Of a DNA stretch of 64,000 bases, positions 5,226 to 64,000 are shown piece after piece; position 1 is the first letter of the stretch; each line of letters begins with the position of its first letter. The stretch spans positions 35,729-99,728 of the forward strand of contig JAWLHB010000027.1 in NCBI GenBank assembly GCA_041690595.1, written 5' to 3'. The stretch is from Lentisphaeria bacterium. GTDB taxonomy: Bacteria > Verrucomicrobiota > Lentisphaeria > JABSQK01 > JAWLHB01. The position numbers and the translations under genes were made by a program. The notes beneath the pieces are model-generated. The model had not been told where the DNA came from, ran no database searches, and was given only the letters and a program-made list of their open reading frames with translations.

Positions 5226-7343
5226 ATGTTGACAGTGACGCGCCACGCCGCTATCCTTTTCCGCGGTACGTGCCCGTGGCCTTTCTGCCCATCACCCCAG
5301 CCTGGAGTCTTCCTCTTGCGCCTTTCATTCCTCTCCGCCGGCCTCCTCACTTTCATCTTCTTCATGGTCTGTTCCACCATGTCCGCACAACAGAAGCTTG
5401 CCGATTTTGCCCGCGTGGTTGTGGCCGAAGATGCGTTGCCGGTCACCCGCGATGCCGCCGAAGAGCTTTCGCACTACGCCAGCCGGATAGCCGGGCGGGA
5501 GATTCCCCTCGTGATGTGGTCGGATGGCGTACTGGAACAGGCTGGGCTGAGCTTCTTTGTCGGAGCCGGTGTGGCCGATGCCGTGCTGGGCGCGCCCCAG
5601 GGACCCTGGCTGATGGAAGAGTTCATGCTGCGCACGGTGCCGCGGGGGGTGATCCTGGCGGGGGATGACGCGGCGGGCAAAGCGGTGTCGGGCAATGTGG
5701 CTGGGGGCAGTCGGCTCGCTGTCTACACGCTGCTCGACGATCATCTGGGGGTACGCTGGTTCTTTCCGGGGGAGTTGGGCGAGCACGTTCCATCCGCGGC
5801 CGATGCGGTCATCCCGCCGCTCGATCAGCGCCGGCAGCCTCCCTTCATGATCCGCAATTTTTCCATCGGTTATACCTCGTACCATACTCCCGCCTTTCGC
5901 GATGCTTCGAACCGCTGGGGGCGACGGATTCGCAACGCGTGGGTGCCCCCCGCCGTCTTTGGTCACAGCTGGTTCTACGCCTTCGATCTACGCAAGCCTC
6001 CGGAAGAGAACCCCTTCTTCCAGGAGCACCCCGAATGGTTCGCCCTCGTCAACGGCAAGCGCCAGCCACCGCAGATTTGTACCTCCAATCCAGAAGTCCT
6101 CGACCACATGGTGCAATACGTCCTCGGCGACACCAAACGGGCCATCACCTCCATATCTCCCAGCGATGGCGGCGGCTTCTGCCAGTGCGATGAAGAGAGC
6201 AAGTCCGAGGCGCACAAGCGCCTTGGCGCTCCCAGTTGCACGGCGCTGGATGTCCCCGGCATTCTCAGCTACGACGGCAAGACGGTGCAGCTCAGCGACC
6301 GCATCTTCACCTATGCCAACGAGATCGCCCGCCGCGTCCGCGAGAAGGATCCCGCCAAAGGTGTCGGGATCTTTGCCTACACCTTCTACAACCGCCCGCC
6401 CGTCAACATTGACCGGCTCGAACCCAACCTCTACCTCTCCTTCGTCTTCCAGGCCCAGGCGCACCTCGACCCGATCGCCCGTGAGCAGTGGCTCGAATCC
6501 ATAGCCGGCTGGCAGAAGGTGGGCGCCAGGATGGTCGTCCGCGAAGGGTGGGGTAATCATTACCTCCTCGATCTCCCCTTCATCCACGACCGCCAGATCC
6601 ACGACTCGCTGCAAACTGCCGCCCGCCTCGGCTTTATCGCCGCCTACGGCGAAGGGGGCAAGTGCTTCGCCACCCAGGCTCCGAATGCCTGGGCCGCTGT
6701 CCGCACCATGTGGGATCCGACCATCGACTATGAGGCGATGATGGAGGACTTCTACACCAAGGCCTATGGCTCCGCCGCCGAACCCATGCGTCGATACTTC
6801 GACACCTACGCCTCCAAGCTTCAGGCGAACTGGCCGAATCGCCGCTTCGTTATGGATACGCGCGGCGTCGCCTACGTCAACCTCGTGAACTCGTGGCACC
6901 TCCTCTTTCCGGCCGAGGTCGTCGAGGCAGCCGAGGCGCATCTTCGCGAGGCGGAGCAGCTTGCACCGGAAGGTGAATATGCAGGCCGCGTCGCCCTCCA
7001 TCGCGTCGGCCAGGACTACACCCGCTGCATGCTCGAGCTCCTGGACTGCTATCGTCAGCTTGCCGAGCTTGGCGTGGAGATGGAGTTCTTTTCCACTGCC
7101 GTGACAGAACCCCGCGACGAGCCCGAGCTTCGTCAGCGACTTCTTGAGCGGGCCCTCATCCTTGGGGAGCAGCGCGAAGATATCCTCCTCGCCAACCGCG
7201 AGGTGCCTGCTCCGGACGAAGGGCTCTACGCCATCACCAACGACCGCGGCATGCGCCAATGGCACCAGAAGGTGAAGAGCCTCCTCAACGACACCACTCC
7301 CACACGCATCACCAAAGCCCTCCTGGCGGAGCCGGAGAAGTAA
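5226..7343 (+). CDS. Secreted DUF4838-family protein (glycoside-hydrolase-like)
   Basis: Track ORF 5160..7343. Signal peptide (LSAGLLTFIFFMVCSTMSA|QQ). Motif GSRLAVYTLLDDHLGVRWFFPGELGEHVP is typical of DUF4838. Start ambiguous (GTG 5160 or ATG 5226). Confidence 0.5.
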   Translation: MLTVTRHAAILFRGTCPWPFCPSPQPGVFLLRLSFLSAGLLTFIFFMVCSTMSAQQKLADFARVVVAEDALPVTRDAAEELSHYASRIAGREIPLVMWSDGVLEQAGLSFFVGAGVADAVLGAPQGPWLMEEFMLRTVPRGVILAGDDAAGKAVSGNVAGGSRLAVYTLLDDHLGVRWFFPGELGEHVPSAADAVIPPLDQRRQPPFMIRNFSIGYTSYHTPAFRDASNRWGRRIRNAWVPPAVFGHSWFYAFDLRKPPEENPFFQEHPEWFALVNGKRQPPQICTSNPEVLDHMVQYVLGDTKRAITSISPSDGGGFCQCDEESKSEAHKRLGAPSCTALDVPGILSYDGKTVQLSDRIFTYANEIARRVREKDPAKGVGIFAYTFYNRPPVNIDRLEPNLYLSFVFQAQAHLDPIAREQWLESIAGWQKVGARMVVREGWGNHYLLDLPFIHDRQIHDSLQTAARLGFIAAYGEGGKCFATQAPNAWAAVRTMWDPTIDYEAMMEDFYTKAYGSAAEPMRRYFDTYASKLQANWPNRRFVMDTRGVAYVNLVNSWHLLFPAEVVEAAEAHLREAEQLAPEGEYAGRVALHRVGQDYTRCMLELLDCYRQLAELGVEMEFFSTAVTEPRDEPELRQRLLERALILGEQREDILLANREVPAPDEGLYAITNDRGMRQWHQKVKSLLNDTTPTRITKALLAEPEK

Positions 7344-7413
7344 GGGCGGCAGGCGACAATGGGTGGGAAGAATGGGAAGATCCTCACTGACGGAACCGCT
7401 AAGGCAACTGTCT

Positions 7414-7476
7414 GACTCGTCTGACTTGTCCGACTCGTCTGACTTGTCCGACTCGTCTGACTCGTCTGACTTGTCT
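7414..7476. repeat. Tandem 9-nt repeat (GACTCGTCT / GACTTGTCC variants) x7 in convergent intergenic region
   Basis: Read directly: gactcgtct gacttgtcc gactcgtct gacttgtcc gactcgtct gactcgtct gacttgtct. Confidence 0.8.
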
Positions 7477-7489
7477 GACTGGGTATTCT

Positions 7490-9595
7490 TCAGCGGATTC
7501 GATAGACGCCCCAGGCGGGGAGCATGGTGGTGGCGGTGGCGCGGAGTTCGCGCACTGCGTGGCCATCGAGGACTTCGACCTGGACTCCTGCGGGAAGGTC
7601 CATCGTGACGTCGCTGAAGGTCCAGACCGTGCGGATGTCGCCGTCGTGCCAGACGATGCCGGCGCGGCTCGGCAGCGCCCGCCGGGTCTTCATGTGGGGG
7701 AGCGCCTGGTTCAGAATGTGGTTGAGCCGCGCCCACCAGTCGTATAGCCTGTGGTCGAGTCCATAGTCGTGCTCGTAGCAGAGATAACCGCCGGCGGCCA
7801 TCGATTGGAAGAGATACCGCTCCAACTCTTCCGGTGACCGCTTGCGGGCCTGACAGAAGAGGGTCAGCCCGGCGGTCATGGCGAGGTGGTCCACCCACCA
7901 GCCGAGATCATTCTGGCCGGCGACGGCCCGGTTCTGCTCCAAGAGGTCGCCGCGCAAGTCGGCCAGGCCGAAGCGGCTGGCCATCCAGGGCGAGATGCTC
8001 TCGCAGGAAAGGGAGTTGACGCCGAGGGCCTGGATACGCTCGAAGAGCCGTCCCAGCGGGGTGAAGTTGGTGCGCATGGCATAGGCATAGTTGGCCTGGG
8101 TGAGCCCCATGTTGGAGAGGCTGTCGGTGAAGATGTAGTCCAGCCCGCCCTCGGTCTTCCAACGCTTGAGATCGGCCAACACCCAATCCGCAATCGGCGT
8201 ATGCCAGTCCGCCACCACGAGGGTCTGGAAGCCGTAGCCGCCGCCGGCGGGCAGACCGGTGGCGCTGATCATGCGGTACTCGGGGTGTTCCGCGAAGATC
8301 GGTGCGCGCGGCGAAAAATGCGGGGCGAACCAGGCGCCGATCTCCATGCCCAGTGCGTGAGCCCTGTCGGCCATGGTTTTCCACGCCTCGATGCCACCCC
8401 AGAACTCCGACGGGAAAAATCGGTGGGTGGAGCAGACGCTTGAACAATGCAGGTCGCCATGTACGCCGGCGTCGAGCTTTCGCTTCATGCCGAGCACGGT
8501 CACGTCGCTCTCGCTCATGACTTCCGGCATGAAGCGTTTGATCCCCTGTGCCGCCAGTACGGGCAGCACCCGCTCGGCGATGGCATAGGGCACGTCCCTG
8601 CTGGCCACATCTTCGCCGGCGATACTCATCCGCAGGCGCCCATCAACCACCCGGGTGGTGTACTTCAACCCCATCTCCGGCACCGGGCGGGTCGGGGCGA
8701 TGTTGAACCTCCGGCCACTGAGGCCGTAGACGTATTCCTTCACCTCCAACCAGAGGTCGTGCATCTGATGCTCGGCCAGTGCGCCGGGCGCGAAGATGAC
8801 ATGCTTTTCCGGCGTGGTGACCGCGGCCGCCAGCGGAAAGCGGTATTCGTCCACGACATGCAGCAGGTCGCTTCCGCCGGGCGATTCGACCAGGCTGGAG
8901 ACGCTGTCCAACTCCGGCCAGTACTGGAGCAACGCCCCCTCTTTGGCGACTTGGAGGTCGAAGCCCTGAAGCAGTCCACCACGGGGGCCAAGCTGGAAGG
9001 AGTTGCCCTGCGGGGAACCGTACTGGTCGAGAGTCTTCAGGCAAGCGGTGGTAAAGACCGTCTCCCTGGCGCCGACGTATACCGGCATGTTGCACTGCCC
9101 CTGCGAGAGGACGGTGTTGCCGGTGATACGGCCGCCAATCTCCCAGGTTCCATGAACGAGAAGCCGGTGGATGCGGCGTGTTTCGCTACGGAATTCCCAC
9201 GCGTAAGAAAAGCCTTGCCACTCCCGCCCGCCCACGGCAAGCGTGGCGGGTTTGAGGATCAGAGCCAGATCATCCGCCACCGGTTCAGCGCTGTCGTCCA
9301 ACCAGACTGCCGCCTGATCATAGTCGTCGGCATACTCGCCGCGAGTCCAGCGGATGCCATGTGCCCGCAAGCGGACGCGCACGGTGCCATCGCCGTTGGT
9401 GTCGACCGCCAGCAGTTCAAGCCGCGGATAGAGAATGCCGTCCGGCGTATCCAGTCGCAGTTGCATAGGCCGCGCCTCACCGCGCAGTTGCACGCCGTTG
9501 ATCGCGACGCAACCGAGGCCGAGGAACTCGTCGTTGTCAGCGACGACAAGTTGCACCTTGCAGGCGGACGAGATTTCCACAAGACGATTCGTCAT
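7490..9595 (-). CDS. Cytoplasmic hypothetical protein, possible TIM-barrel glycoside hydrolase (family unresolved)
   Basis: 701-aa ORF, no signal peptide, codon usage consistent with the genome, located in a CAZyme cluster. No family-diagnostic motif recognised by eye. Confidence 0.4.
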   Translation of the reverse strand: MTNRLVEISSACKVQLVVADNDEFLGLGCVAINGVQLRGEARPMQLRLDTPDGILYPRLELLAVDTNGDGTVRVRLRAHGIRWTRGEYADDYDQAAVWLDDSAEPVADDLALILKPATLAVGGREWQGFSYAWEFRSETRRIHRLLVHGTWEIGGRITGNTVLSQGQCNMPVYVGARETVFTTACLKTLDQYGSPQGNSFQLGPRGGLLQGFDLQVAKEGALLQYWPELDSVSSLVESPGGSDLLHVVDEYRFPLAAAVTTPEKHVIFAPGALAEHQMHDLWLEVKEYVYGLSGRRFNIAPTRPVPEMGLKYTTRVVDGRLRMSIAGEDVASRDVPYAIAERVLPVLAAQGIKRFMPEVMSESDVTVLGMKRKLDAGVHGDLHCSSVCSTHRFFPSEFWGGIEAWKTMADRAHALGMEIGAWFAPHFSPRAPIFAEHPEYRMISATGLPAGGGYGFQTLVVADWHTPIADWVLADLKRWKTEGGLDYIFTDSLSNMGLTQANYAYAMRTNFTPLGRLFERIQALGVNSLSCESISPWMASRFGLADLRGDLLEQNRAVAGQNDLGWWVDHLAMTAGLTLFCQARKRSPEELERYLFQSMAAGGYLCYEHDYGLDHRLYDWWARLNHILNQALPHMKTRRALPSRAGIVWHDGDIRTVWTFSDVTMDLPAGVQVEVLDGHAVRELRATATTMLPAWGVYRIR

Positions 9596-47886: not shown

Positions 47887-48573
47887 CTAAAGGTCCAAAG
47901 TACCGCCTGCACGCTCAATACAATCTGGAGAGTCATTCCGGACGTTGTTGACTTTGGTTGACACTGGGTAAAAAGAGAGCCGCTGTTGGTAAGCTTTGAG
48001 CACATGGAGAGGGGGGGAGGGCATCGTCTGGTTGACACTTAGCCAGATTTCGCGCTGCTCCGGCTCCACAATCGCGGGCATGCGATCGTGAAGGTGGGCG
48101 ACATGGGGAGATGCCGCAGTCGTGATGATCGTATAGGAGTGTAGCATTACTTCGCCGCCTGGCTCGCGCCATGTGTCCCAAAGGCCCGCCAGCGTCATCA
48201 AGGGAGCGTCAGCAAGGTGGATGAAGTGCGGAATCTTCTCCTTACCGAGCCGCTGCCACTCGAAGTAGCCGTGGGCAATAACCAGGCAGCGGCGCCGATC
48301 GACAAGGTGGCGGAACGAGGGCTTCTCCGTGAGCGTCTCGCCGCGGGCGTTGATCAACCGGTTGCCGATGCCACGCTCCTTGGCCCAGAAGGGGACCAAC
48401 CCCCATTGCATGAGGCGGATAACCCTGCCGCCGCCATCGTCAAGCAAAACAGGCGTGATCGAGGTGGGTGGGATGTTGAAGCCGGGCAGATAGTCGTCGC
48501 GATCGGGCCACTGGGCGTCGAAGTAGTCGGCGATATCGTCGGCGGGTTGGCTCAGGGAGAATCGGCCGCACAT
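47887..48573 (-). CDS. yedK: SOS-response-associated peptidase (SRAP/YedK, abasic-site processing protein)
   Basis: Starts MCGRF (catalytic Cys2). LMQWGLVPFWAK and HGYFEW are typical SRAP motifs. Confidence 0.85.
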   Translation of the reverse strand: MCGRFSLSQPADDIADYFDAQWPDRDDYLPGFNIPPTSITPVLLDDGGGRVIRLMQWGLVPFWAKERGIGNRLINARGETLTEKPSFRHLVDRRRCLVIAHGYFEWQRLGKEKIPHFIHLADAPLMTLAGLWDTWREPGGEVMLHSYTIITTAASPHVAHLHDRMPAIVEPEQREIWLSVNQTMPSPPLHVLKAYQQRLSFYPVSTKVNNVRNDSPDCIERAGGTLDL

Positions 48574-50864
48574 GGTGAATCGCTCTCCGTGCTGGGAGTT
48601 GGCTCGAAGCAACGGCGCAGCTCGTCGATGCGGCTAAGTGAGAGGATCCGTTCCGCTTGCTGCCTGGCTTCCCCCGTGTCGATCTGCTGAAGCTGCTTCT
48701 GGATGGTGGGAAGGTAACGCGGGTCCACGCTCAGCGTACGAATGCCGATCCCGATCAGGAACGGAATGTACCGTACCTCGTGCGCCATCTCGCCGCAGAT
48801 GGAGACTTGGATACCATGGCGCGCGGCGGCATCCGCAATCCGCTTCAGCGAGCGCAACACCGAAGGATGGTACGGCTGGAAGTAGGGCGCCACCTTCTCG
48901 TTGCTCCGGTCGACCGCGACCAGGAACTGGATGAAGTCGTTGGTGCCGATGCAGAAGAAGTCCACCAGAGGCGCGATATCGTCCAGTATTTCGATCAGCG
49001 AGGGGACTTCCACCATGATGCCGATGCTGATCTCCGGGATGCCCGTTATCCCTTCGGCGACCAACTGCTCGCGGCAGATCTCGACCTCGCGGCGGGCTTC
49101 AAGGTACTCGTCAATGGACGAAATCATGGGGAACATGAGGCGGATACGCCTCCCCCCATGCTCGATGGAGGCCCGGAGAAAGGCGCGTAGCTGCTCGTGG
49201 AAGAGCTTGCGGTGGTGAAGCGAAAAGCGGATGGAGCGCATCCCCAGATTGGGATTGATCTGCTGGCTCTTGTCATCGAAGAAAGCCATCACCTTGTCGC
49301 CACCGATGTCCAGCGTTCGGAAGGTGAGAACGCTTCCTGCGCACTGCTCGACCAGCGTGCGGTAGATGGGGTACTGCTCTTCCTCCGTCGGGAAGTCGGT
49401 TCGTACCAGAAAGGGAAACTCGCTGCGGTACAGGCCCACCCCTTCCGCCTTCAGCTTCGTCGCGTGTTCGAGGTCGCTCAGCAGGTTGATGTTGGCAAAG
49501 AGGGTGATGCGCTGCCCGTCGCGCGTTATGGTTGTCGGCTGCATCTCGCCCCGCGCATGATTGGCCACCTCCCGCGCGTTGTTCCGGTGGCGGAGCCGCT
49601 TCAGGATGTCGTCGTCCGGGTCGATGTGCAGGTGCCCGGCAAAGCCGTCGAGGACAAGGCGCGTGCCGTCTGCCAGGTCGAGCAGGCGCCGATTGCCGGC
49701 GATCATCAAGGGAATCTGCAGCGACCGGGCAAGAATCGAGACATGTGAGGTGACCCCTCCCGTTACCAGCACAATGCCGGCCACCTCTTCCGACGCCAGC
49801 TTGAGCACGTCGGAGGGAAAGAGTGTATCGGCGATGACGATGTGCTGAGAGCACTGCGAACCCGGCTCGGCCAAGCTCTGCTGCAGGTTGCCGATCAGCC
49901 GGCGGCTCAAGTCTTCCACATCCTGGGCCTTCTCGCGGACAAAAGCGTTGGCGTTAGCCGAAAAGAGGTCGATGTATTCCCGCGCCACGCCAAGAATCGC
50001 CCCCGCCGGATGGGTGCCGCCGCGGATCCGCTGCCGCATCTTGCCCGTAAATTCATCGTCCTTGAGCATGAGCACGTGCGCGCTGAAGATCAGTGCCGCC
50101 ATCTCGGGCAGTTTGTGCGCCAGGTCGCGCTGCAGATTCTCGAGCTGGCGCTCCGTCTCGTGGATGGCCCGGTCGAAGTCCTCCTCCGTGTACTGCTCCG
50201 TCAGCACGGTCTCGTTGAGGAGCTGGCTGCTCAGGCGGCGGTTGAGCACGATGGCGGGACCATGGGCATAGCCATCGCTCGCCACTTCGCCGCGAACCAT
50301 CTTGATCGCCGGTTCTTCCAGATCCTCCGCCGCCGGCTCGCTCTCTTCCTGGTGCATCGAGATGAGGATGCGCGCATTCTCGATCGCCCCCGCCAATTGG
50401 GAGGCCGTCGCCTTCAGCGCCATGATATCCGTCTCGGTGAAGGCATTCTCCTCCGGCCGCTGGACAACCAGCACGCCGATGCGGTCGCTCCCCCGGCTGA
50501 TCGGCACCGCCAGAAACGCTTCGAAATGCTCCTCGTCCGTCTCCGCGAAGAAGCGGTAATTCGGGTTGGTGCTGGCGCACTTTTCACAGATCGGCCGTAG
50601 CTCTTGCAGCGCCGTACCGACCAGGCCTTCCCCGAGCCGCAGCTGCACACGCCCGACCGCATCCGCGGAAAGGCCACGCGTCACCCGGAGCGTCAGCCGC
50701 TCCGTGCGCTGACTGTAAAGATAAATCGAACAGACGTCGGAGCGGAGGTGGCTCGCTACCAACTCCACGATTCGCTGCAGAAAACTCTTGATATTCGTGC
50801 TGCCGGCAAGTGAGGCACTCAGCTCGCCGACATCGTTCAGCAGACCCAGATGTGTTTTGGCCAT
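48552..50864 (-). CDS. ptsP: Phosphoenolpyruvate-protein phosphotransferase PtsP (EI-Ntr) with N-terminal GAF domain
   Basis: GAF N-domain plus PEP-utilising enzyme motifs (GGVTSHVSILARSLQIP, CGEMA...). Start at MAKTHLGLL. Confidence 0.9.
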   Translation of the reverse strand: MAKTHLGLLNDVGELSASLAGSTNIKSFLQRIVELVASHLRSDVCSIYLYSQRTERLTLRVTRGLSADAVGRVQLRLGEGLVGTALQELRPICEKCASTNPNYRFFAETDEEHFEAFLAVPISRGSDRIGVLVVQRPEENAFTETDIMALKATASQLAGAIENARILISMHQEESEPAAEDLEEPAIKMVRGEVASDGYAHGPAIVLNRRLSSQLLNETVLTEQYTEEDFDRAIHETERQLENLQRDLAHKLPEMAALIFSAHVLMLKDDEFTGKMRQRIRGGTHPAGAILGVAREYIDLFSANANAFVREKAQDVEDLSRRLIGNLQQSLAEPGSQCSQHIVIADTLFPSDVLKLASEEVAGIVLVTGGVTSHVSILARSLQIPLMIAGNRRLLDLADGTRLVLDGFAGHLHIDPDDDILKRLRHRNNAREVANHARGEMQPTTITRDGQRITLFANINLLSDLEHATKLKAEGVGLYRSEFPFLVRTDFPTEEEQYPIYRTLVEQCAGSVLTFRTLDIGGDKVMAFFDDKSQQINPNLGMRSIRFSLHHRKLFHEQLRAFLRASIEHGGRRIRLMFPMISSIDEYLEARREVEICREQLVAEGITGIPEISIGIMVEVPSLIEILDDIAPLVDFFCIGTNDFIQFLVAVDRSNEKVAPYFQPYHPSVLRSLKRIADAAARHGIQVSICGEMAHEVRYIPFLIGIGIRTLSVDPRYLPTIQKQLQQIDTGEARQQAERILSLSRIDELRRCFEPTPSTESDSPCAADSP

Positions 50865-50990
50865 AGGTTTCGGTTCCGCCGCGGTGGCTGTCAAGATGGG
50901 GGGTGGATGCATGAAGATACCTTAAGTCGCATGACTTGCGAAGAGGTGAGGGCGAAAATGGCATCTCGCCGGCGAGCCCCTGAGCGGCAG

Positions 50991-51055: not shown

Positions 51056-51397
51056 TTAACCAATGGCCGCCTGGCCGGTCTCGCCAGTGCGGATGCGGAT
51101 ACAGTCATCGAGCTTGATCACGAAGATCTTGCCATCACCGATCTTCTGTGTACGCGCACCATCGATGATCGCATCGATCGTCGCCTGCACAAAGTCGTCG
51201 TTGACGGCCACCTCCAGGCGCACCTTCTTCAGAAGGTTCACCTCCACATCGACGCCGCGGTAGCTCTCGTGGTACCCCTTCTGCTGGCCACAGCCAAGCG
51301 CATTCGTGACGGAGAGCTTGTACACCTCCTTCTCGTAAAGCTTCTGCTTGACGTGGTTGAGGCGTTCGGGCTGTATATACGCTATGATGAGTTTCAT
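51056..51397 (-). CDS. glnK: Nitrogen regulatory protein P-II
   Basis: [21 protein letters not shown]...[28 protein letters not shown]. 113 aa. Immediately downstream of amtB. Confidence 0.9.
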
Positions 51398-51431: not shown

Positions 51432-52781
51432 TTACTGAGTGGTGAAGATCTGGAAACCGCCGTACGCTTCCATCCCATGCTCGCCGATGTCCAGGCCGCG
51501 AAGCTCTTCGTCGGCCGGCACCCGGATTCCCATCAGCATCTTGATGGCGCCAAGAATGATCGTCGTCGCCACCACGCAGGTTACCCCTACCGCGACTACC
51601 CCGATCAACTGCGGCATGAAGGCCATCTTGACCAACACCCCCGCCTCGTTGGCCGTGTACCCGAAGATACCGACCGCCAGCGTTCCCCAGATTCCGCAGA
51701 CCAGGTGGACCGACAGCGCCCCCACCGGATCGTCCAGCCGCAGTTTCTGGTCGATCAACAGAACCGCCAGGACCACGATCACGCCTGCGATTCCGCCGAT
51801 GATGATCGCGGATGTCACCGAGACCACGTCCGCTCCCGCCGTGATGCCGACCAAACCGGCCAGCGCTCCGTTCAGCGCCATCGTCAGATCCGGCTTCTTC
51901 TGCACGACCCAGGAGGTCACGATCGCGCCGACAATCCCCGCGGCAGCCGCCAGACTCGTCGTCACCAGAACGAAGGAGACCCCAGCCGGATCGCCGCTCA
52001 GCACCGAACCGCCGTTGAAGCCGAACCAACCGAGCCAGAGCAGGAAGACGCCGATCGTAGCCAGCGGCATATTGTGTCCGGGGATCGCCCGGCTGCGTCC
52101 TTCCACGTACTTGCCGATCCGTGGCCCGAGCATGAAGGCCGCCACCAGCGCTGCCCAGCCGCCCACCGAATGCACAAGGGTCGACCCCGCGAAGTCATAG
52201 AAACCAAGCTGATCGAGCCAGCCTGCTCCCCACTTCCAACTCCCCACCACCGGATAGACGATACCCACGTACAGCGTGGTGAAGATCAGGAAGCTGCTCA
52301 GCTTGACCCGTTCCGCCACCGCGCCCGAAACAATCGTCGCCGCCGTCGCCGCGAACATCCCCTGGAAGAGGAAGTCCGTCCAGTAGGTATAACCGGCCGA
52401 CGCATAGGCCGCGGTCAGACCTTCCGGCCCCGTTCCGATCCCAAAGCCGGCGAAGGCAAGGTACTTGAAGTCCACCCCCGGGTACATCAGCGAGAACCCG
52501 ATCAGCGCATACGTCAGCAACCCGATCGCCAGGATGGCCGTATTCTTGAAGAGTATGTTGGTCGTGTTCTTCGCTCGCGTCAGACCCGTCTCCAGCGTCG
52601 CAAAACCCAGGTGCATGATAAAGACCAGAAAGGTCGACACCATCATCCAGATGTTGTTGGCTGTAAACAGCGCATCCAGAGCGGTCACTTCCGCTGCTTC
52701 TTCGGCGGCTTCAGCCTGCCCTGCACAGAGCAGGAGACCGCAGCCGATCAGGGGTAAATAGGTGAGTAGACGGTTTTTCAT
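51432..52781 (-). CDS. amtB: Ammonium transporter AmtB
   Basis: 11-TM Amt family signatures ([38 protein letters not shown]). Signal peptide. Confidence 0.9.
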
Positions 52782-52957
52782 CAGTGAAAGATCTCCTTTA
52801 GTTTCTTGTTTTATGCTCGTTCAAATGATCGATCGAAAAGGGATGCGCCCCGAATTCGTCTCGTGGCCCCGCTCGCACATCGCTGGATAGGCGGTCTCCT
52901 TTTGAGCTGAAAAGTGGCTCTCTCTACCGACACTGTCATGTAGGTAGCACCCCCTTT

Positions 52958-52974
52958 AGCAGTCAACATGCCAA
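52958..52974 (-). promoter_or_regulatory. Sigma-54-type -24/-12 promoter candidate (TTGGCATGTTGACTGCT on the minus strand) upstream of amtB-glnK
   Basis: GG and GC elements at canonical spacing. Lies ~165 nt upstream of the amtB ATG. Confidence 0.45.
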
Positions 52975-53111
52975 CTCTGCTAAAGCCACCGCCGCCACCC
53001 CCACTTTCCGCCTCCACAATTTTGCCCGACGCACCCCTCCGACCGCTCCCTCTGCCGATCGCGAATTCTACAAAATTGTAGTATAAGGGGGTTGTATCTC
53101 ACGATTTTGTC

Positions 53112-54719
53112 ATGTACTGTCTGCCCCAAAGCCATCCTCACGACCTTATCGATGACCAGGCTACCCCGGGAGTTTCCGTGGAGAATTCGCACAAATTGCA
53201 GTTGGAAGTCCTCTACCGTATCAGCCAGGCACTGGTGCATTACCAGGACGTGAGCGCCCTCATGCAGGAAGTCCTCGATATCCTCGAGACCGAGATGGGC
53301 ATGTGGCGTGGCACCCTCACCCTGCGCCACATGGACAGCAACGACCTCAACATCGAAGCATCCAAGGGGCTCACCGCCGGCGAGATCAAGCGCGGCCGCT
53401 ACAAGGTCGGCGAGGGCATCACCGGTCGCGTCGCCGCCACCGGCGAGCCGGCGGTCATTCCCGATATCAGCAAGGAACCTTCCTTCCTCGACCGTACGCG
53501 CAGCCGCGGCAGCGCCAGCGTCGCCTTCATCTGTGTGCCCATCGTCCATCAGCACGAAGTGATCGGCACCATGAGCATCGACTGCCCTGCCTCCGACGAG
53601 CGCATCCTCGACCAGAACCTCTCCTTCCTGATGATCATCGCCAACGTCCTTGCCGAGGCCGTCTCGAGTATCCGCTCGCAGGTTCAGGAACGCGAGGCTC
53701 TCCTGGCGGAGAATCGCAAGCTGCGCATGGAATTGGGCGATCAGTATCGCCCCAGCAACATCATCGGCAACTGCGCGGCCATGCGCGCTGTCTACATGCA
53801 GATTGCCCAGGTCGCCAACAGCCAGGCCACCGTCATCGTTCGCGGCGAATCCGGCACCGGGAAGGAACTGGTCGCCAGAGCCGTCCACTACGCCAGCGAA
53901 CGCAAGAACGGACCTTTCATCGCCGTCAACTGCGCCGCACTCCCCGAAAACCTCATCGAGAGCGAGTTGTTCGGACACGAAAAGGGCGCCTTCACCGGGG
54001 CCATTCAGCGCCGCCAGGGACGCTTCGAACTCGCTAACGGCGGCACCTTGTTCCTCGACGAAATCGGCGACATCTCCACCGCGGTGCAGGTCCGCCTGCT
54101 CCGTGTCCTTCAGGAGAAGGTCTTCGAGCGCGTTGGCGGCGCCGAGTCTATCCATTCCAATGTCCGCGTCGTCACCGCCACCCGCCGCGACCTGGAGAAA
54201 GCCATTGTGGACGGCCGTTTCCGCGAAGACCTCTACTTCCGCCTCAACGTCTTCCCCATTCACCTCCCCCCCCTGCGCGAGCGCCGCAGCGACATCGTCC
54301 TCCTCGCCGACCACTTCCTCGCCCGCTGCAACGAGCGTTACGCTCGTACCATCAAGCGCATCTCCACGCCCGCCATCAACATGATGATGAGCTATCACTG
54401 GCCTGGAAACGTCCGCGAGCTCGAGAACTGCATCGAATACGCCGTCCTCAATACCGGTGACGATGTCATTCACGGCTTCAATCTGCCGCCGTCCCTTCAG
54501 ACCGCCAAAGAGACGCACACCGAGTTCATCCCCAGCGAGGGCGCCAGCCTCGAAGGACTCCTCGGCGCCTACGAACGCGAGATCCTGGTCGATGCACTCA
54601 AAACCCATCGAGGAAACTGCTCCGCGGCCGCACGAGCCCTCCAGGCTACCCCCCGCATCTTCAACTACCGCGTCAAACGACACCACATCGACATCGATTC
54701 CTTCCGCGTCGGCTCCTGA
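53112..54719 (+). CDS. Sigma-54-dependent transcriptional activator with N-terminal GAF domain (NifA-like bEBP)
   Basis: GAF region, then AAA+ sigma-54 interaction motifs ([40 protein letters not shown]) and C-terminal HTH. True start may be the internal GTG at ~53177. Confidence 0.85.
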
Positions 54720-54804: not shown

Positions 54805-54843
54805 ACAAAAGTGTCGAACTTACCCCAAAATCGACACTTTTGT
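54805..54843. promoter_or_regulatory. 13-bp perfect inverted repeat ACAAAAGTGTCGA-N13-TCGACACTTTTGT; bidirectional terminator and/or enhancer-binding-protein UAS
   Basis: Read directly. Lies 86 nt after the NifA-like stop and ~115 bp upstream of the sigma-54 -24 element at 54937. Confidence 0.4.
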
Positions 54844-54936: not shown

Positions 54937-54952
54937 TGGCACTCCGCTGGCT
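54937..54952 (+). promoter_or_regulatory. Sigma-54-type -24/-12 promoter candidate (TGGCAC-TCCGC-TGGCT)
   Basis: GG/GC spacing is canonical. Lies upstream of the 55168..58849 plus-strand gene string. Confidence 0.35.
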
Positions 54953-55082: not shown

Positions 55083-55120
55083 GATGCCCCCCGTTCCAGT
55101 TCTCCTGGACGGGGGGCATC
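55083..55120 (+). other. 12-bp GC-rich perfect hairpin GATGCCCCCCGT-N14-ACGGGGGGCATC in the 5' UTR, 48 nt upstream of the hypothetical gene
   Basis: Read directly. Not followed by a clear U-run. Confidence 0.4.
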
Positions 55121-55167
55121 CTTTCCTGCTCCTTGGCGTTCGGGCCACCGAGGGTTATAGTGGAACC

Positions 55168-55506
55168 ATGACAACCTGGTACTGCAAGAATCTTGGTGAT
55201 GGGCTGGTGGCCGCTGATCCCATTGCCCGCATTGAAGCCCACTATGCCGCCTGCGCCGAACCGCCGGCTGCTGATGTCGCCGTCTTCACCCGCCACTGCA
55301 TGGGCGAGCTTCACTGTACCATCATCGCCTATTTCTCCCCCGCCGCCGCGCCACTGGCTCGCGCCGCTGGCGCGCTGCCTTGCGGACCACCTCCACCTGG
55401 CGATCTCGAACTGCTCGTCGGCACCGAGCACGCATGGACTTTGCTCTTCCCGCAGACCCCCCGGCCACATCCCCTACGCCCCCACCTTTCTGCCGACTCT
55501 GCTTGA
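55168..55506 (+). CDS. Hypothetical protein (112 aa)
   Basis: MTTWYCKNLGDGLVAADPIARIEAHYAACAEPP... Track ORF 55084..55506. Start chosen after the hairpin. No domain recognised. Confidence 0.4.
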   Translation: MTTWYCKNLGDGLVAADPIARIEAHYAACAEPPAADVAVFTRHCMGELHCTIIAYFSPAAAPLARAAGALPCGPPPPGDLELLVGTEHAWTLLFPQTPRPHPLRPHLSADSA

Positions 55507-58849: not shown

Positions 58850-60907
58850 TCAATGCCGGGCGCTCTGTATTGCTTCGCGAAGATGGCTGAAATCGCTGCC
58901 CTTTGTAAAGAAGCTGGACGCGCCCGCCTCCCTCATGGCTTGCCGTATTAGCGGGTCGTCGCTCACCGAGAGGCCGATCACGTAAAGAGTCGGGTGCGCC
59001 TGCTTCAGTTGGCGCGTTGCCTCGACGCCATTCAACTTCGGCATGTTGATGTCGATGATCGCCACTTCCGGGTCCAAGGTCGATACCAGCTCCAGCAGGT
59101 GCACGCCGTCGGCCGCTTCCCCCAGAACCACAAGATCTTCCTCCATCTGCAGAAGACCCGCCAACCCCGCGCGCACAATCTCATGATCGTCCGCCAGGAC
59201 AACGCTGATCTTCCCCGTTCGCCGGCCATCTTCCCGCACCGCCGCGGGTGAAGGCTCCAGCGTGATCTCGCCGGTTTCGACCGGTATTTCCGCCCCCACC
59301 ATGGCAGGTGCATGCACATGAATCCTGCAACCCTGACCGGGAGTACTCTCCACCACCAGGTTGCCGCCCAGCAGAGCCAGACGATCCCGTGCGCTGCAAA
59401 GGCCGGTCCCCGCCGGGGTGTCACCTTCCAGCGATTTCGGGTCCATGCCGGCGCCTTCGTCGCTTACCACCAGGTGGATGAACGAGTCGTTCTCGGTGCT
59501 GCGCAAAGTCGCCGTGTCGATGCCCGCGTGCTTGACCACGTTGAAGAGCAACTCCCGCACGATCTCGAAAACTTGGTACTTGATGTCGTAATCCGTCGGA
59601 TCACGCATCGTATTCAACTCCAGAACGACCCGCAGCTTGTGCCGATCATGCATGAATGTCGCCAACCAGTGCAGCGCTTCCGCCAGACTGTTTTCCCGCA
59701 GCGGATACGGGCGAAGCTCGGCAGACAGCGAACGGGTCTCGTCGACCGCTTCCCGAAGCAGCAGCCCCAGCTCGTCCCCAACCTCTTCCCGCGTCGATGG
59801 ATTGGTTGTCTTGCGAAGCACGTGCGCCCGCATGATCGCCGCGGTCAGCGTCTGTTGCAGCGAATCATGCAGTACTCGCCCCATCCGCTCCCGCTCCCGT
59901 TCTTCCGCCCGCGTCAATTCATTGACCAGCCGCCGCAACTGCAGCGCCCGCCGATTGAGCTGGCGTGTCCGTTCCGCCACCCGCTCTTCGAGACGATTGT
60001 TCAGCACGCTCAACTGCCGCTCCAACTGCTTGCGCTTGCTGATGTCCAGATGAATGCCGGCCCAGGAGCGTATCTTGCCCTGCTTGTCGCGGAAAGGCCG
60101 CCCTTGCGTCAGGATGTCGTGCCACTGATTGTCCACGCCCCACAGACGGTACTCGCATTGCCAGTCGTTGCCCGTATGGCAGCCGCTCTTCCAGAAGGAA
60201 AGCACCTGCTGCAGATCGTCTGGATGCACCCGGTCCAGCCACGGCCGCGGACTCTCGCTCAACTCTTCCAGCCTGTGACCCAGGATCTTCAGAAAACTAT
60301 CCGACAGGTAGAGCGCCCGGCCCTCCGGATCGCACAACCACGCTCCATAAGGAAGCGTCTGGCTGATGATCGCATACAACTCTTCCCGATCATGCAGATC
60401 CTGTTCCACCGCCAGTTGCTCCGTACGATCGGCTACGATCACTTGCAGCCATCCCTTCGTCTCGCCTTCGATCGGCACGCACGACATGAGAATGTTCGAT
60501 CCAGCGGCATCAGGCTGCCCCTTGGCCACTATCGATTGCGCTTCTCCGCTCTCACGTACCAGGTTGAGAAGCCCGTCGATTCGCTCTCGCGATTCGTTCG
60601 CGAAACAGCACGACAGGTGGCTACCTATTGCCTCCCCGGCCTTACAGCCCAACACCCTCTCCGCTACACGGTTCCACGTCGATATTCTGCCGATCGGATC
60701 GATGCAGAACGCCGCCATACTCTTCTGGTGGCGCTCCAACGAAAGCGCCATGGACTCATCTTCGCCCCCGCTATTGGCACGATGACCTAAAGCGTGGCGC
60801 AGGTCGGGGGGTATGGGCCGCTGGATGCTCATTGGCGGAAAGCTCCAGTCATCCGACTGCAGGATAAAAGGAAAGGCGTGTTCACCTTTCACTATACACC
60901 GAGCCAA
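58850..60907 (-). CDS. Hybrid sensor histidine kinase: PAS - HisKA_3 (NarX/DegS-type H-box) - HATPase - C-terminal receiver
   Basis: H-box RVLHDSLQQTL. ATPase G-boxes (DEGAGM, GTGL). C-terminal REC (ISVVLADDHEIVRAGL...DINMPKLNG). True start probably internal (e.g. MSIQRP or MALSLE). Confidence 0.8.
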   Translation of the reverse strand: MARCIVKGEHAFPFILQSDDWSFPPMSIQRPIPPDLRHALGHRANSGGEDESMALSLERHQKSMAAFCIDPIGRISTWNRVAERVLGCKAGEAIGSHLSCCFANESRERIDGLLNLVRESGEAQSIVAKGQPDAAGSNILMSCVPIEGETKGWLQVIVADRTEQLAVEQDLHDREELYAIISQTLPYGAWLCDPEGRALYLSDSFLKILGHRLEELSESPRPWLDRVHPDDLQQVLSFWKSGCHTGNDWQCEYRLWGVDNQWHDILTQGRPFRDKQGKIRSWAGIHLDISKRKQLERQLSVLNNRLEERVAERTRQLNRRALQLRRLVNELTRAEERERERMGRVLHDSLQQTLTAAIMRAHVLRKTTNPSTREEVGDELGLLLREAVDETRSLSAELRPYPLRENSLAEALHWLATFMHDRHKLRVVLELNTMRDPTDYDIKYQVFEIVRELLFNVVKHAGIDTATLRSTENDSFIHLVVSDEGAGMDPKSLEGDTPAGTGLCSARDRLALLGGNLVVESTPGQGCRIHVHAPAMVGAEIPVETGEITLEPSPAAVREDGRRTGKISVVLADDHEIVRAGLAGLLQMEEDLVVLGEAADGVHLLELVSTLDPEVAIIDINMPKLNGVEATRQLKQAHPTLYVIGLSVSDDPLIRQAMREAGASSFFTKGSDFSHLREAIQSARH

Positions 60908-61103: not shown

Positions 61104-61119
61104 TGGCATGCTCGCTGCT
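61104..61119 (+). promoter_or_regulatory. Sigma-54-type -24/-12 promoter candidate (TGGCAT-GCTCG-CTGCT) 67 nt upstream of the first Hsp20 gene
   Basis: Near-identical to the amtB candidate (TGGCATG...CTGCT). Canonical GG/GC spacing. Confidence 0.45.
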
Positions 61120-61185: not shown

Positions 61186-61605
61186 ATGTACTGGCCAACC
61201 ACCTACAGCAACCTCAATGGCTTCAACCGCTTGCTCGATGAGATGAATCGCCTCTGGGGCAACGGCGCAAGCCAGACTGCCTTCCCCAAGGTCAATGCCC
61301 ATACCAATGAAGATGGCATGGTCATTACCATGGAGCTCCCAGGCATCGATCCAGACGCCTTGGATATTCAGCTCAGGGAGAACCAACTCACCATCAGTGG
61401 CAAGATCGAGAAACGGAACGTCGAAGAGGGCGAGCGCTATCATCGTAATGAGCGGCGACACGGCTCCTTCAGCCGCCAGTTCACTCTCCCCTTCCGCGTC
61501 CAGGCCGACAAGATCAAGGCCAACAGCTCCAACGGCGTGCTGGCCCTGACTCTGCCGAAGGTCGAAGAAGAGAAGCCACGCAAGATCGCCATCCAGGTCG
61601 CCTGA
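61186..61605 (+). CDS. Hsp20/alpha-crystallin family small heat-shock protein (1 of 3)
   Basis: Alpha-crystallin domain motifs (PKVNAHTNEDGMVITMELPG, GVLALTLPK). Confidence 0.9.
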   Translation: MYWPTTYSNLNGFNRLLDEMNRLWGNGASQTAFPKVNAHTNEDGMVITMELPGIDPDALDIQLRENQLTISGKIEKRNVEEGERYHRNERRHGSFSRQFTLPFRVQADKIKANSSNGVLALTLPKVEEEKPRKIAIQVA

Positions 61606-61633
61606 CCGAGCTTAAACAAAAGGAGAGATTACC

Positions 61634-62026
61634 ATGAACAGCGATACACTCACTCGTCGCGAAGAGAACGGCACGGTGACCCGCGAAGAAAAACGCTTCG
61701 CCTTCACCCCCAAGTGCGACATCTGGGAAAATCAAAACTCCGTCTACCTCGAAGTCGAGATGCCCGGGGTGACCGATCAAAACGTCGACGTCTCACTCGA
61801 AGATGGCATCCTCACCATCCTCGGGCGTGTTGAACCCCTCAACCTCGAAGGCTACAGCCGCGTCTATGCGGAATACGAAGACGGCAACTTCGAACGATCC
61901 TTCAGGATCTCCGATGAGATCGACGAGGAGAAGATCTCCGCGACCATGAAGCACGGGCTCCTCCGCCTCGAACTGCCGAAGCGTGAGGCCGTCAAGCCGC
62001 GGCGAATCTCCGTCACCGCCGCATAA
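61634..62026 (+). CDS. Hsp20/alpha-crystallin family small heat-shock protein (2 of 3)
   Basis: CDIWENQNSVYLEVEMPGV and HGLLRLELPK. AGGAG RBS. Confidence 0.9.
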   Translation: MNSDTLTRREENGTVTREEKRFAFTPKCDIWENQNSVYLEVEMPGVTDQNVDVSLEDGILTILGRVEPLNLEGYSRVYAEYEDGNFERSFRISDEIDEEKISATMKHGLLRLELPKREAVKPRRISVTAA

Positions 62027-62060
62027 CCCAGGAGCGACATGATCCAAAGGAGGAACTCTC

Positions 62061-62567
62061 ATGAACATTCGTGACATGATCCCCTTCAATAAAAATCGCG
62101 AGCATGGGATGACGCGGACGGAACGAAGCCTTCCCCCGCAACCAACCCTCACACCCTTCAACCAGCTCTGGAATGACATGGACACCTTCTTCGAAAACTT
62201 CTTCGGAGAATACCCGTCAAGTCGCCAGGACTTCAGCCTGACCCCCAGAATCAACCTGAGTGAAACGGACAACGTTCTCCAGATTGAAGCGGAGATGCCA
62301 GGCATGGAGGAAAAGGACATCGAGCTGGCCGTCGATGAAGGTCATCTCGTCATGCGTGGCGAGAAACGGCGCGAATGCAACGAGAACGATGGCGGCAGGC
62401 GGCGCATCGAATGCAGCTACGGCCGCTTCGAACGGACCATTCCCTTGCCCGACTACGTCAAGGCGCATGAAGCCAAAGCGAAATACCGCAACGGCGTTCT
62501 CTATGTGGAGATCCCGAAAGATCCCAAGCGGTCCGAAGGTAAACGCATTCCCGTGACCGCCGGCTGA
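62061..62567 (+). CDS. Hsp20/alpha-crystallin family small heat-shock protein (3 of 3)
   Basis: PRINLSETDNVLQIEAEMPGM and NGVLYVEIPK. AGGAGG RBS. Confidence 0.9.
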   Translation: MNIRDMIPFNKNREHGMTRTERSLPPQPTLTPFNQLWNDMDTFFENFFGEYPSSRQDFSLTPRINLSETDNVLQIEAEMPGMEEKDIELAVDEGHLVMRGEKRRECNENDGGRRRIECSYGRFERTIPLPDYVKAHEAKAKYRNGVLYVEIPKDPKRSEGKRIPVTAG

Positions 62568-62637: not shown

Positions 62638-64000
62638 CTACCTGCCCAGCTTCGCCCGCACCTTGTCGAAGCCCCAGCGGAACATCGTGAAGGGCTCCGC
62701 GATGCGCAGCAGATACGCGAAGACAACATACGCGATGAGCCCGGCCGTCCCCGCGCCGACCAGCTTGCCGAAGAGCAGCAGCTTCGTCATCTTGCTCAGG
62801 TTCACCTCGTCGATCACCGGGATCAACTGGTTGAGGACCAGCATCACCACCCAGCCGCCGGCGCCGGTAATCGCGGCAAGTATCGAAAGCCGCCCCAGAA
62901 AGAGCAGCGTATCCCGAACCGGAAGCATCGGAATCGTCCGCTTCAGGAAGGTCACCAACGTCAGCGTCTTCAGCATCCGCGAAATCACATACCCCAGGAT
63001 GACCGCCAGTAGCGCCTCCGTCCCATGAAGGCCGATCAGCCTTACAAATATGTAACTGATGCCAATGCTCAGCGCCGAATAAACGATGCCGATCACCGTC
63101 ACCGAAATCATCTTCCGATTCGCGAAATAGCCTTGCATGAAGACGTACTCCAGCGCAAAGGCAGGCAGCACAAACATGTAGCAGGCCGCGGCAAGTCCAG
63201 CCAGTCGCGCCGACTCCACCGAGACCTCGCCGCGGGCAAAGAGCAGCACCGCGATCGGCTCCGATAGCGCCGCAAGAAGCAGGCTCACCGGGATGAAGAA
63301 GGACAGAAGCATCCGCGTCGACTGCGTGAGCAACTCCCCAAGCTTCTTCCAGTCCTTCCGGTCCACCAACTCGCACAGAAAGGGAAACATCGCGATCGAC
63401 ACCGCATACGGGACCAACCACGAAAGCCCCTGAAACAACTTCCGCCCGAAGCTGTTCGCTTGGATCAGCAGCGCGCTCTCCTGCTTCAGATACGAGAGAA
63501 TCGTGATGTTGTTGTAGATGTCCCTCGCCTTCGCGAACAGGATCCCGGCAAGCAGCGGCAGCATCAACCATAAAAGCGTCCGCAGCGCCGGCGATTTCAG
63601 GTCCAAAGACGGGCGCACGAACCGCAACTGCCGAAGGAGCCCAAGCATGTGCGTCAGCAGCTTGGCGATACTGCCCACCAGCAGCCCGAAAACCAGCGCC
63701 ATGTAGTCCATTCCGAAAAGCCCCATCCCCACAAACATGAAGAGGATGACACAGAACTTCCACGACGCATCTCCGATTGCCGCCAGAAAAAAGTGCTTGT
63801 ATCCATTCAGCAGCATGTACGTCGTCGACCCCAGTGACAGGAACAGCAGGCTCGGCGCCAGCCACGGAAGACTCTGCACCGCAAGATTATACGCCGTGGG
63901 ATCCACCGCCTCGTCCCAGTACGTGAACAGACGCACCACCACTTCCGGAAAACAGACAATCACCAGAATCGTTCCCAAGAGCAGAATCGCCTGAAGCGTG
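62638..64000 (-). CDS. murJ: Lipid II flippase MurJ (MviN), C-terminal ~450 aa; N-terminus lies beyond window end
   Basis: Multi-TM MOP-superfamily protein. Characteristic MurJ length/topology and motifs (FFIPVSLLLAALSEPIAVLLF, YMFVLPAFALEYVFMQGYFA). Confidence 0.8.
   Translation of the reverse strand, partial: TLQAILLLGTILVIVCFPEVVVRLFTYWDEAVDPTAYNLAVQSLPWLAPSLLFLSLGSTTYMLLNGYKHFFLAAIGDASWKFCVILFMFVGMGLFGMDYMALVFGLLVGSIAKLLTHMLGLLRQLRFVRPSLDLKSPALRTLLWLMLPLLAGILFAKARDIYNNITILSYLKQESALLIQANSFGRKLFQGLSWLVPYAVSIAMFPFLCELVDRKDWKKLGELLTQSTRMLLSFFIPVSLLLAALSEPIAVLLFARGEVSVESARLAGLAAACYMFVLPAFALEYVFMQGYFANRKMISVTVIGIVYSALSIGISYIFVRLIGLHGTEALLAVILGYVISRMLKTLTLVTFLKRTIPMLPVRDTLLFLGRLSILAAITGAGGWVVMLVLNQLIPVIDEVNLSKMTKLLLFGKLVGAGTAGLIAYVVFAYLLRIAEPFTMFRWGFDKVRAKLGR

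Follow-up and report, generated by a model that had tools for sequence, protein, structure and literature searches.

Transcriptional control by a bacterial enhancer-binding protein (bEBP), an enhancer and a sigma-54 promoter is textbook biology, and several described systems resemble the locus presented here. NtrC (NRI), which carries a phosphorylatable receiver, acts at the sigma-54 promoters of nitrogen-assimilation genes such as enteric glnAp2 and glnK-amtB from two dimer-binding palindromes (TGCACC-N5-GGTGCA) that lie ~3 helical turns apart and >100 bp upstream, with weaker extra sites nearer the promoter and with the activator gene linked to the target operon. At E. coli glnAp2 the NtrC sites are centred near -140 and -108. 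NifA of Proteobacteria has the domain order GAF, AAA+, helix-turn-helix (HTH), and its enhancer, TGT-N10-ACA, is located ~100-150 bp upstream of the sigma-54 promoter. A GAF bEBP also has a working precedent at amtB: according to a review (PMC12655853, citing Hu et al. 2017), EbpA of Leptospira interrogans, an FhlA-like protein that has two GAF domains, and RpoN directly activate amtB and are needed for low-nitrogen growth. Similarly, Nlh1 of Aquifex aeolicus, an organism without nif, is a GAF-regulated sigma-54 activator with a proposed role in nitrogen-assimilation control (PMC9866876, citing Batchelor et al. 2013). Here we describe a paired DNA site and a sigma-54 promoter that lie between an amtB-glnK operon and a divergent gene for a NifA-like GAF bEBP in a 64,000-nucleotide stretch (the window) of a Lentisphaeria bacterium (contig JAWLHB010000027.1, positions 35,729 to 99,728).

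We consider it probable that the window carries an enhancer and sigma-54 module for nitrogen assimilation, through which the adjacent NifA-like GAF bEBP acts on amtB-glnK, in what may be the part that NtrC plays in enteric bacteria. A reading made from the window's sequence alone (the sequence-only reading) had proposed control of amtB-glnK by a GAF bEBP and sigma-54, and this proposal gains support from the conservation of the paired site and the promoter in five related loci, where the genes behind the promoter include amtB and glnK. The predicted promoter, TGGCATGTTGACTGCT (52958..52973, minus strand), is intergenic and has the GG and GC doublets of a sigma-54 promoter (TGGCAC-N5-TTGCW). 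With one further base, TTGGCATGTTGACTGCT (52974..52958, minus strand) is a good -24/-12 match that departs from TGGCACG-N4-TTGCW at two weakly conserved positions; its GG (52972-52971) and GC (52960-52959) have the canonical GG-N10-GC spacing, exactly as the sequence-only reading had held. If C 52959 is -12, the predicted transcription start falls at ~52947, which gives amtB (ATG at 52781) a leader of 166 nt. Three matches to TGGCAY-N6-TGCW are present in the 64 kb (0.72 expected), a count that 3 of 100 shuffles reach, so the promoter match taken by itself is no more than suggestive. An equivalent sigma-54 match occupies the same relative position in the related loci L081, L082, L083, L084 and L166.

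Upstream of this promoter are two palindromic ACA-W4-TGT sites 31 bp apart, the layout of a bEBP enhancer (upstream activating sequence). The predicted promoter-proximal site, ACAATTTTGT (53070..53079), is centred at ~-127 and forms part of an extended palindrome, CTACAATTTTGTAG, and the predicted distal site, ACAAAATCGT (53101..53110, read on the minus strand from 53110 to 53101), is centred at ~-158. On the plus strand the two sites read as ACAAAATTGT and its near-complement ACGATTTTGT, with 21 nt between them and a common centre at 53090, 118 bp from the -24 GG of the amtB promoter. The inverted repeat that had been reported at 53070-53110 is thus present, and its assignment as a bEBP enhancer stands in so far as a paired site at the typical distance is conserved; what does not stand is the long inverted repeat, in place of which we find two short palindromes. 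Pairs of the form ACR-N4-TGT, N19-21, ACR-N4-TGT occur exactly twice in the window (shuffle mean 0.015; 0 of 200 shuffles reach 2), and the two pairs flank the bEBP gene, each 113-118 bp from a strong -24/-12 match. An additional single site, GCAAAATTGT (53016..53025, centred at ~-73), is not conserved in relatives and may be a low-affinity site; the same variant is one member of a pair upstream of a glutamine synthetase gene in locus L164.

Genome and metagenome collections were searched for loci of relatives, and others were retrieved through exact-protein look-ups; in a contig scan, whose specificity suffered from the generic bEBP peptide ESELFGHE, only three close loci turned up. A paired site lies beside related bEBP genes in L081, L082, L083, L084 and L166. 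Read towards the divergent gene, the distal and proximal sites are ACAAAATCGT and ACAATTTTGT in the window (N21 between them), ACATTTTCGT and ACAAAAATGT in L081 (N21), ACATTCCTGT and ACACATTTGT in L082 (N20), ACAAAATCGT and ACAAATTTGT in L083 (N21), ACATTATTGT and ACAAAAATGT in L084 (N20), and ACAAATTTGT and ACAGATTTGT in L166 (N21). Each of these pairs is followed by a divergent TGGCA(C/T)-N6-(T/C)TGC(T/A/G), and the proximal site is 97-108 bp from the sigma-54 match in the five cases measured (the window and L081-L084). By blastn the intergenic regions of the window have no other similarity to any fetched locus, indicating that the conserved elements are footprints and not residual identity. 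In the 1.15 Mb made up of the window and the fetched loci there are 25 pairs, compared with ~2.2 in dinucleotide shuffles, and 11 of the pairs are followed, 90-170 bp downstream, by a sigma-54 match, an arrangement found once in 20 shuffle runs (~0.05 per run).

The conserved unit is a 10-bp palindrome, ACA-(A/T)4-TGT, often cTACA...TGTAg, that is doubled with 30-31 bp centre to centre. Two of its features lay outside the search pattern: a 4-bp core that is 85-90% A/T despite the GC-rich genomes, and flanks that tend to read cT...Ag (as in CTACAATTTTGTAG of the window). Within a pair the members are inverted in the window and L081, direct in L166, L087 and the L164 glutamine synthetase pair, and unrelated in their cores in L082; since their relative orientation varies among loci, the long inverted repeat of the window is incidental. 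The pair keeps a similar position relative to the bEBP gene whatever the divergent gene may be.

The bEBP gene (53178..54719, plus strand) encodes a NifA-like protein with a GAF domain, an AAA+ domain containing the GAFTGA loop and a Fis-type HTH, as judged from domain matches and homologue lengths. Pfam matches include Sigma54_activat (PF00158, E = 5.5e-73), AAA_lid (PF25601), HTH_8 (PF02954, 23.7 bits against a cutoff of 22) and GAF; the last forms the N-terminus, where Pfam returns no Response_reg match. With its AAA+ domain, an EKGAFTGA motif and a C-terminal HTH the protein classes as a bEBP, and a GAFTGA activator adjoining the promoter implies the use of sigma-54. Pfam likewise bears out the identities that the sequence-only reading had given to the flanking genes (Ammonium_transp, P-II, and GAF with Sigma54_activat and HTH_8). 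That reading had also placed the repeat directly at the 5' end of the activator gene, which proved not to be so: the repeat touches only the ATG at 53112 that opens the longest open reading frame (ORF). Because a 100%-identical database protein has 513 aa and the 120 homologues listed are ~500-560 aa long, mostly 510-520, the start is probably the GTG at 53178, which is preceded by GGGAG, and the repeat then lies 68-108 bp upstream.

The bEBP scores 527.6 bits against the TIGR01817 (NifA) model, a borderline miss of the 528.85 cutoff, compared with 361.8 against an NtrC model whose cutoff of 558.6 it does not reach, and among solved structures NifA (9qq6_C, E = 3e-110) gives its best match over the full length. 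Its GAF domain (residues 6-175) finds its best solved match in the GAF domain of Aquifex Nlh1 (4g3k, E = 4.8e-23), with the isolated NifA GAF entry at 9e-11. Aquifex Nlh1 is reportedly bound upstream of glnBA. Among the matches listed, those that are 64-83% identical to the window protein belong to Kiritimatiellae, Lentisphaerae, Verrucomicrobia and metagenome bins, and their JGI label is often 'Nif-specific regulatory protein'.

The DNA motif differs from that of proteobacterial NifA. In the proteobacterial NifA loci L022, L023, L025 and L026, TGT-N10-ACA (TGTCG-N6-CGACA) and never ACA-N4-TGT precedes the sigma-54 matches, whereas loci from the Planctomycetes-Verrucomicrobia-Chlamydiae (PVC) group, spirochaetes and Bacteroidales have ACA-N4-TGT. 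TGT-N10-ACA is absent upstream of both window sigma-54 matches described here, and among the close relatives it occurs only in L084, probably by chance. The predicted recognition helix also differs, reading TQRIxNYRIK here and TPRQIAYRIQ in proteobacterial NifA; the motif thus changes together with the bEBP clade. The window contains no NifH signature, and the genes behind modules of the window type are amtB, glnK, glnA and a small-protein gene, not nif genes. On these sequence features, the window system is not a canonical NifA system. With NtrC enhancers the module shares its sigma-54 promoter for nitrogen-assimilation genes, its two palindromes ~3 helical turns apart, its extra site nearer the promoter and the linkage of activator gene and target operon. 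It differs from them in lineage (PVC, not Proteobacteria), in its ACA-(A/T)4-TGT site and in its GAF sensor, which, standing in place of a receiver, implies no NtrB-type kinase.

The genes found behind these modules point to a regulon for nitrogen assimilation and not for nitrogen fixation. In the window and L166 the module precedes amtB-glnK, and in L081 and L084 it precedes amtB. In L083 an unannotated ORF and then glnK follow, and in L082 the divergent gene encodes a 256-aa protein with a hydrophobic N-terminus (by eye a possible signal peptide) and no Pfam match. Further modules are located elsewhere: in more distant NifA-like loci, the spirochaete locus L003 and L085, a module immediately 3' of the NifA-like gene precedes type I glnA and an amt gene, respectively, and in L164 the pair GCAAAATTGT-N21-ACAAAATTGT, ~3 kb from the bEBP gene, lies ~100 bp before TGGCACGGGACGTGCC and a type III glutamine synthetase gene (glnA-III). 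An ORF behind a pair and promoter in L149, by eye an amidotransferase, has no Pfam match and was not counted as a nitrogen gene.

Two of these relatives have gene arrangements that deserve separate description. L083 (81% GAF-domain identity) has no amtB at 1105-1701, where the sigma-54 promoter is followed by ~600 nt and then glnK; the ~600 nt contain only a doubtful membrane-protein ORF that has no Pfam match. In L082, a 70%-identical relative, the region 5549-9539 holds the bEBP gene and, behind it, genes for two proteins with NrpR domains (PF01995), a domain type that also occurs in nitrogen repressors of archaea, then a gene with a Glu_synthase domain and one resembling gltD; the DNA upstream of the Glu_synthase gene yielded no pair motif.

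The second pair of the window, ACAAAAGTGT-N19-ACACTTTTGT (54805..54843), is predicted to be a second enhancer. It starts 86 bp past the bEBP stop codon, its arms extend to 13 bp (ACAAAAGTGTCGA-N13-TCGACACTTTTGT), and its centre is 113 bp from TGGCACTCCGCTGGCT (54937..54952, plus strand), the highest-scoring sigma-54 match of the window scan. The bEBP gene is thus bracketed by two outward-pointing modules. L081 has a parallel arrangement 3' of its bEBP gene, with a degenerate second member. In the window the second sigma-54 promoter likely drives the gene for a 112-aa protein (55168..55506, plus strand) of a conserved family, with 304 homologues of ~100 aa at E <= 1e-3. It has no match in Pfam, NCBIfam, a PDB sequence search or Foldseek against the PDB, its confidently predicted fold is beta-alpha-beta-beta-alpha-beta (pLDDT, the predicted local distance difference test, 89), and the codon-position GC bias of its ORF is weak. 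In the unrelated genome of L167, where glnK has NtrC-like sites, one homologue lies directly upstream of glnK-amtB, which hints that the family is tied to nitrogen control; the genomic contexts of two more homologues (L168 and L169) were uninformative. A non-coding RNA was also considered as the product of the second promoter, and a protein is favoured because the ORF has so many homologues. The predicted leader between the second promoter and the small ORF contains a strong GC-rich hairpin, GATGCCCCCCGTTCCAG...CTGGACGGGGGGCATC (55083-55121, plus strand), in a region with a fold z-score of -2.8 and a sub-threshold Rfam match to 6C RNA (30.8 bits against a gathering threshold of 47, E = 0.19).

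A mechanism can be proposed by analogy with NifA, Nlh1 and the NtrC family; their biology is our guide to which protein would bind, in which direction it would regulate, which signal it would sense and whether it would act on its own gene. Two dimers of the adjacent NifA-like activator would bind the ACA-(A/T)4-TGT palindromes near -127 and -158, which, ~3 helical turns apart, would present them on one face of the DNA. The bound dimers would nucleate the active oligomer, DNA looping would bring this to sigma-54 RNA polymerase at TGGCAT-N6-TGCT, and ATP hydrolysis would open the promoter, such that amtB-glnK would be transcribed under nitrogen limitation. The GAF domain would probably receive the signal, be it a small ligand (for example 2-oxoglutarate) or the operon-encoded PII protein GlnK. 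On the far side of the activator gene the second copy of the module would drive the conserved 112-aa protein. Because the first pair is 68-108 bp upstream of the activator start codon, the bound activator may also modulate the expression of its own gene, which is plausible from this position.

Several observations weigh against the proposal that the adjacent bEBP activates amtB-glnK from the paired sites. Its binding to them is suggested by genomic linkage only. The half-sites within the 10-bp core are just 7 bp apart centre to centre, which is short for a dimer of Fis-type HTHs if the real site is not the 14-bp form. Strict helical phasing is absent, as the spacing between sites and promoter ranges over more than one helical turn. 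Two of the 9-10 closest loci examined, L163 and L165, have no pair near the bEBP gene, and in L001 the pair lies ~245 bp upstream of it and has no sigma-54 match. In the Lentisphaerae locus L164 the bEBP-side pair precedes a sequence, TTGCAT-17-TATACT, that by eye resembles a sigma-70 and not a sigma-54 promoter, and the GAF bEBP gene is separated from the glnA-III pair by a receiver-type bEBP gene (Response_reg and Sigma54_activat). In the window a weak sigma-70-like match, GTGAGA-16-TACAAT (9/12; 53102-53075, minus strand), lies inside the repeat, the second promoter has GGCT and not TGCT at -12, and rpoN is not found within the 64 kb, its presence being implied only by the GAFTGA activator.

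Of the explanations that compete with activation by the adjacent bEBP, the one that survives best, though we regard it as unlikely, is that a different activator binds the pair, for example a receiver-type NtrC-like bEBP encoded elsewhere, and that the GAF protein regulates something else. Linkage does not equal binding, the view taken here covers 64 kb of the genome, and the receiver-type bEBP of L164 is an alternative binder for the glnA-III pair near its gene. The pair nonetheless tracks the GAF bEBP gene through loci in which the other neighbours differ, the two window pairs flank the sole bEBP gene of the 64 kb, and the motif shifts with the bEBP clade. Moreover, the amtB intergenic region contains no NtrC-type or integration host factor (IHF) consensus, the best match to TGCACC-N5-GGTGCA having 5 mismatches in 12 positions.

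Slightly less probable still is that the repeat serves mainly as an operator of the activator gene, through autorepression or another repressor, and that amtB-glnK is transcribed from another promoter, such as the sigma-70-like match within the repeat. The distance of the pair from the probable bEBP start, the retention of that position next to different divergent genes and the sigma-70-like promoters in the window and in L164 are in line with such an operator. However, the window match is weak, and six loci keep a sigma-54 match at a conserved position. Pairs also occur away from bEBP 5' ends, namely 3' of the bEBP gene in the window, L081, L003 and L085 and ~3 kb away, upstream of glnA-III, in L164, and in the window, L003, L085 and L164 these extra pairs have a sigma-54 match within enhancer range. 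An operator is in any case compatible with an enhancer, and both could hold. Finally, although short AT-rich words are conspicuous by eye in GC-rich DNA and complementary arms of 13 bp make up the second repeat just past the bEBP stop codon, we think it very improbable that the repeats lack an enhancer role and arose by chance or act as RNA hairpins, for example in a terminator 3' of the activator gene, since the window count far exceeds that in shuffles, the second repeat has no T-run after it and is not reported by a terminator scan, and it is the single 10-bp palindromes and their spacing, not the complementarity between members, that are kept among loci, as is the pattern for protein-binding sites.

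The amtB gene of the window (51432..52781, minus strand) encodes an ammonium transporter of 449 aa (PF00909, E = 1e-117), and glnK (51056..51394, minus strand), 37 bp 3' of it, a PII protein of 112 aa (PF00543). A ptsP-like gene (48552..50912, minus strand) for a GAF-Enzyme I of the EI-Ntr type (Pfam GAF and PEP-utilizers) follows 143 bp 3' of glnK; ptsP, amtB, glnK and the bEBP gene together form a nitrogen-signalling cluster. In the predicted amtB leader (52782..52947, minus strand; 166 nt), whose length varies among relatives, no structured RNA element was detected. A riboswitch or other leader RNA in the amtB 5' untranslated region was rejected, as Rfam gives the leader no match, whether at the gathering threshold or at E<=1, and the leader folds no better than shuffles (z-score +0.36).

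Other features of the window and of L164 stand apart from the two modules. The third sigma-54 match of the window, TGGCATGCTCGCTGCT (61104-61119, plus strand), is 67 nt upstream of three tandem Hsp20 genes (61186-62567) and has no ACA-N4-TGT pair near it; the gene divergent from the Hsp20 genes (58850-60907, minus strand) encodes a PAS-HisKA_3-HATPase-receiver hybrid kinase. Two single ACA-N4-TGT words, ACAAATATGT and ACAAACATGT (63044-63053 and 63170-63179), 126 bp apart, are found inside an ORF near the window end with no suitably placed sigma-54 match, and are probably due to chance. In L164 the bEBP-side pair and the sigma-70-like promoter seen by eye (region 3305-3505) front an uncharacterised 325-aa gene, and the receiver-type bEBP gene belongs to the region 5723-7000.

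In the literature, of which our coverage was incomplete, we found no prior description of the enhancer motif or of its spread across these phyla, nor any description of nitrogen control in the PVC superphylum; the motif and its spread therefore appear to be undescribed. What appears to be new here is the motif, its link to 'NifA-like' proteins in the PVC superphylum and some other phyla, the double module and the small protein. Given that the mechanism belongs to a standard class and that Leptospira provides a precedent at amtB, a specialist should find the module moderately surprising. A broader proposal, which in our judgement is evenly poised between right and wrong, is that the 'Nif-specific regulatory protein' of Kiritimatiellia, Lentisphaerae and Verrucomicrobia is a general activator of nitrogen assimilation, a one-component, GAF-sensing replacement for NtrBC that works through a previously undescribed two-palindrome enhancer on a regulon including amtB, glnK, glnA and the conserved 100-aa family, with related forms in some Spirochaetes and Bacteroidales that probably act alike.

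For annotation this would mean that the label 'Nif-specific regulatory protein', which wrongly points to nitrogen fixation, is corrected to one of nitrogen assimilation. The small protein belongs to an uncharacterised family that is apparently nitrogen-regulated; it is a candidate new component and could be a new player in nitrogen signalling. The PVC superphylum, whose nitrogen control is apparently little known, includes bacteria that abound in gut, soil and sea and of which most are uncultured. If the proposal is true, the module would supply an activator, a DNA motif and a promoter type from which the nitrogen regulons of these bacteria would become predictable in metagenome-assembled genomes.

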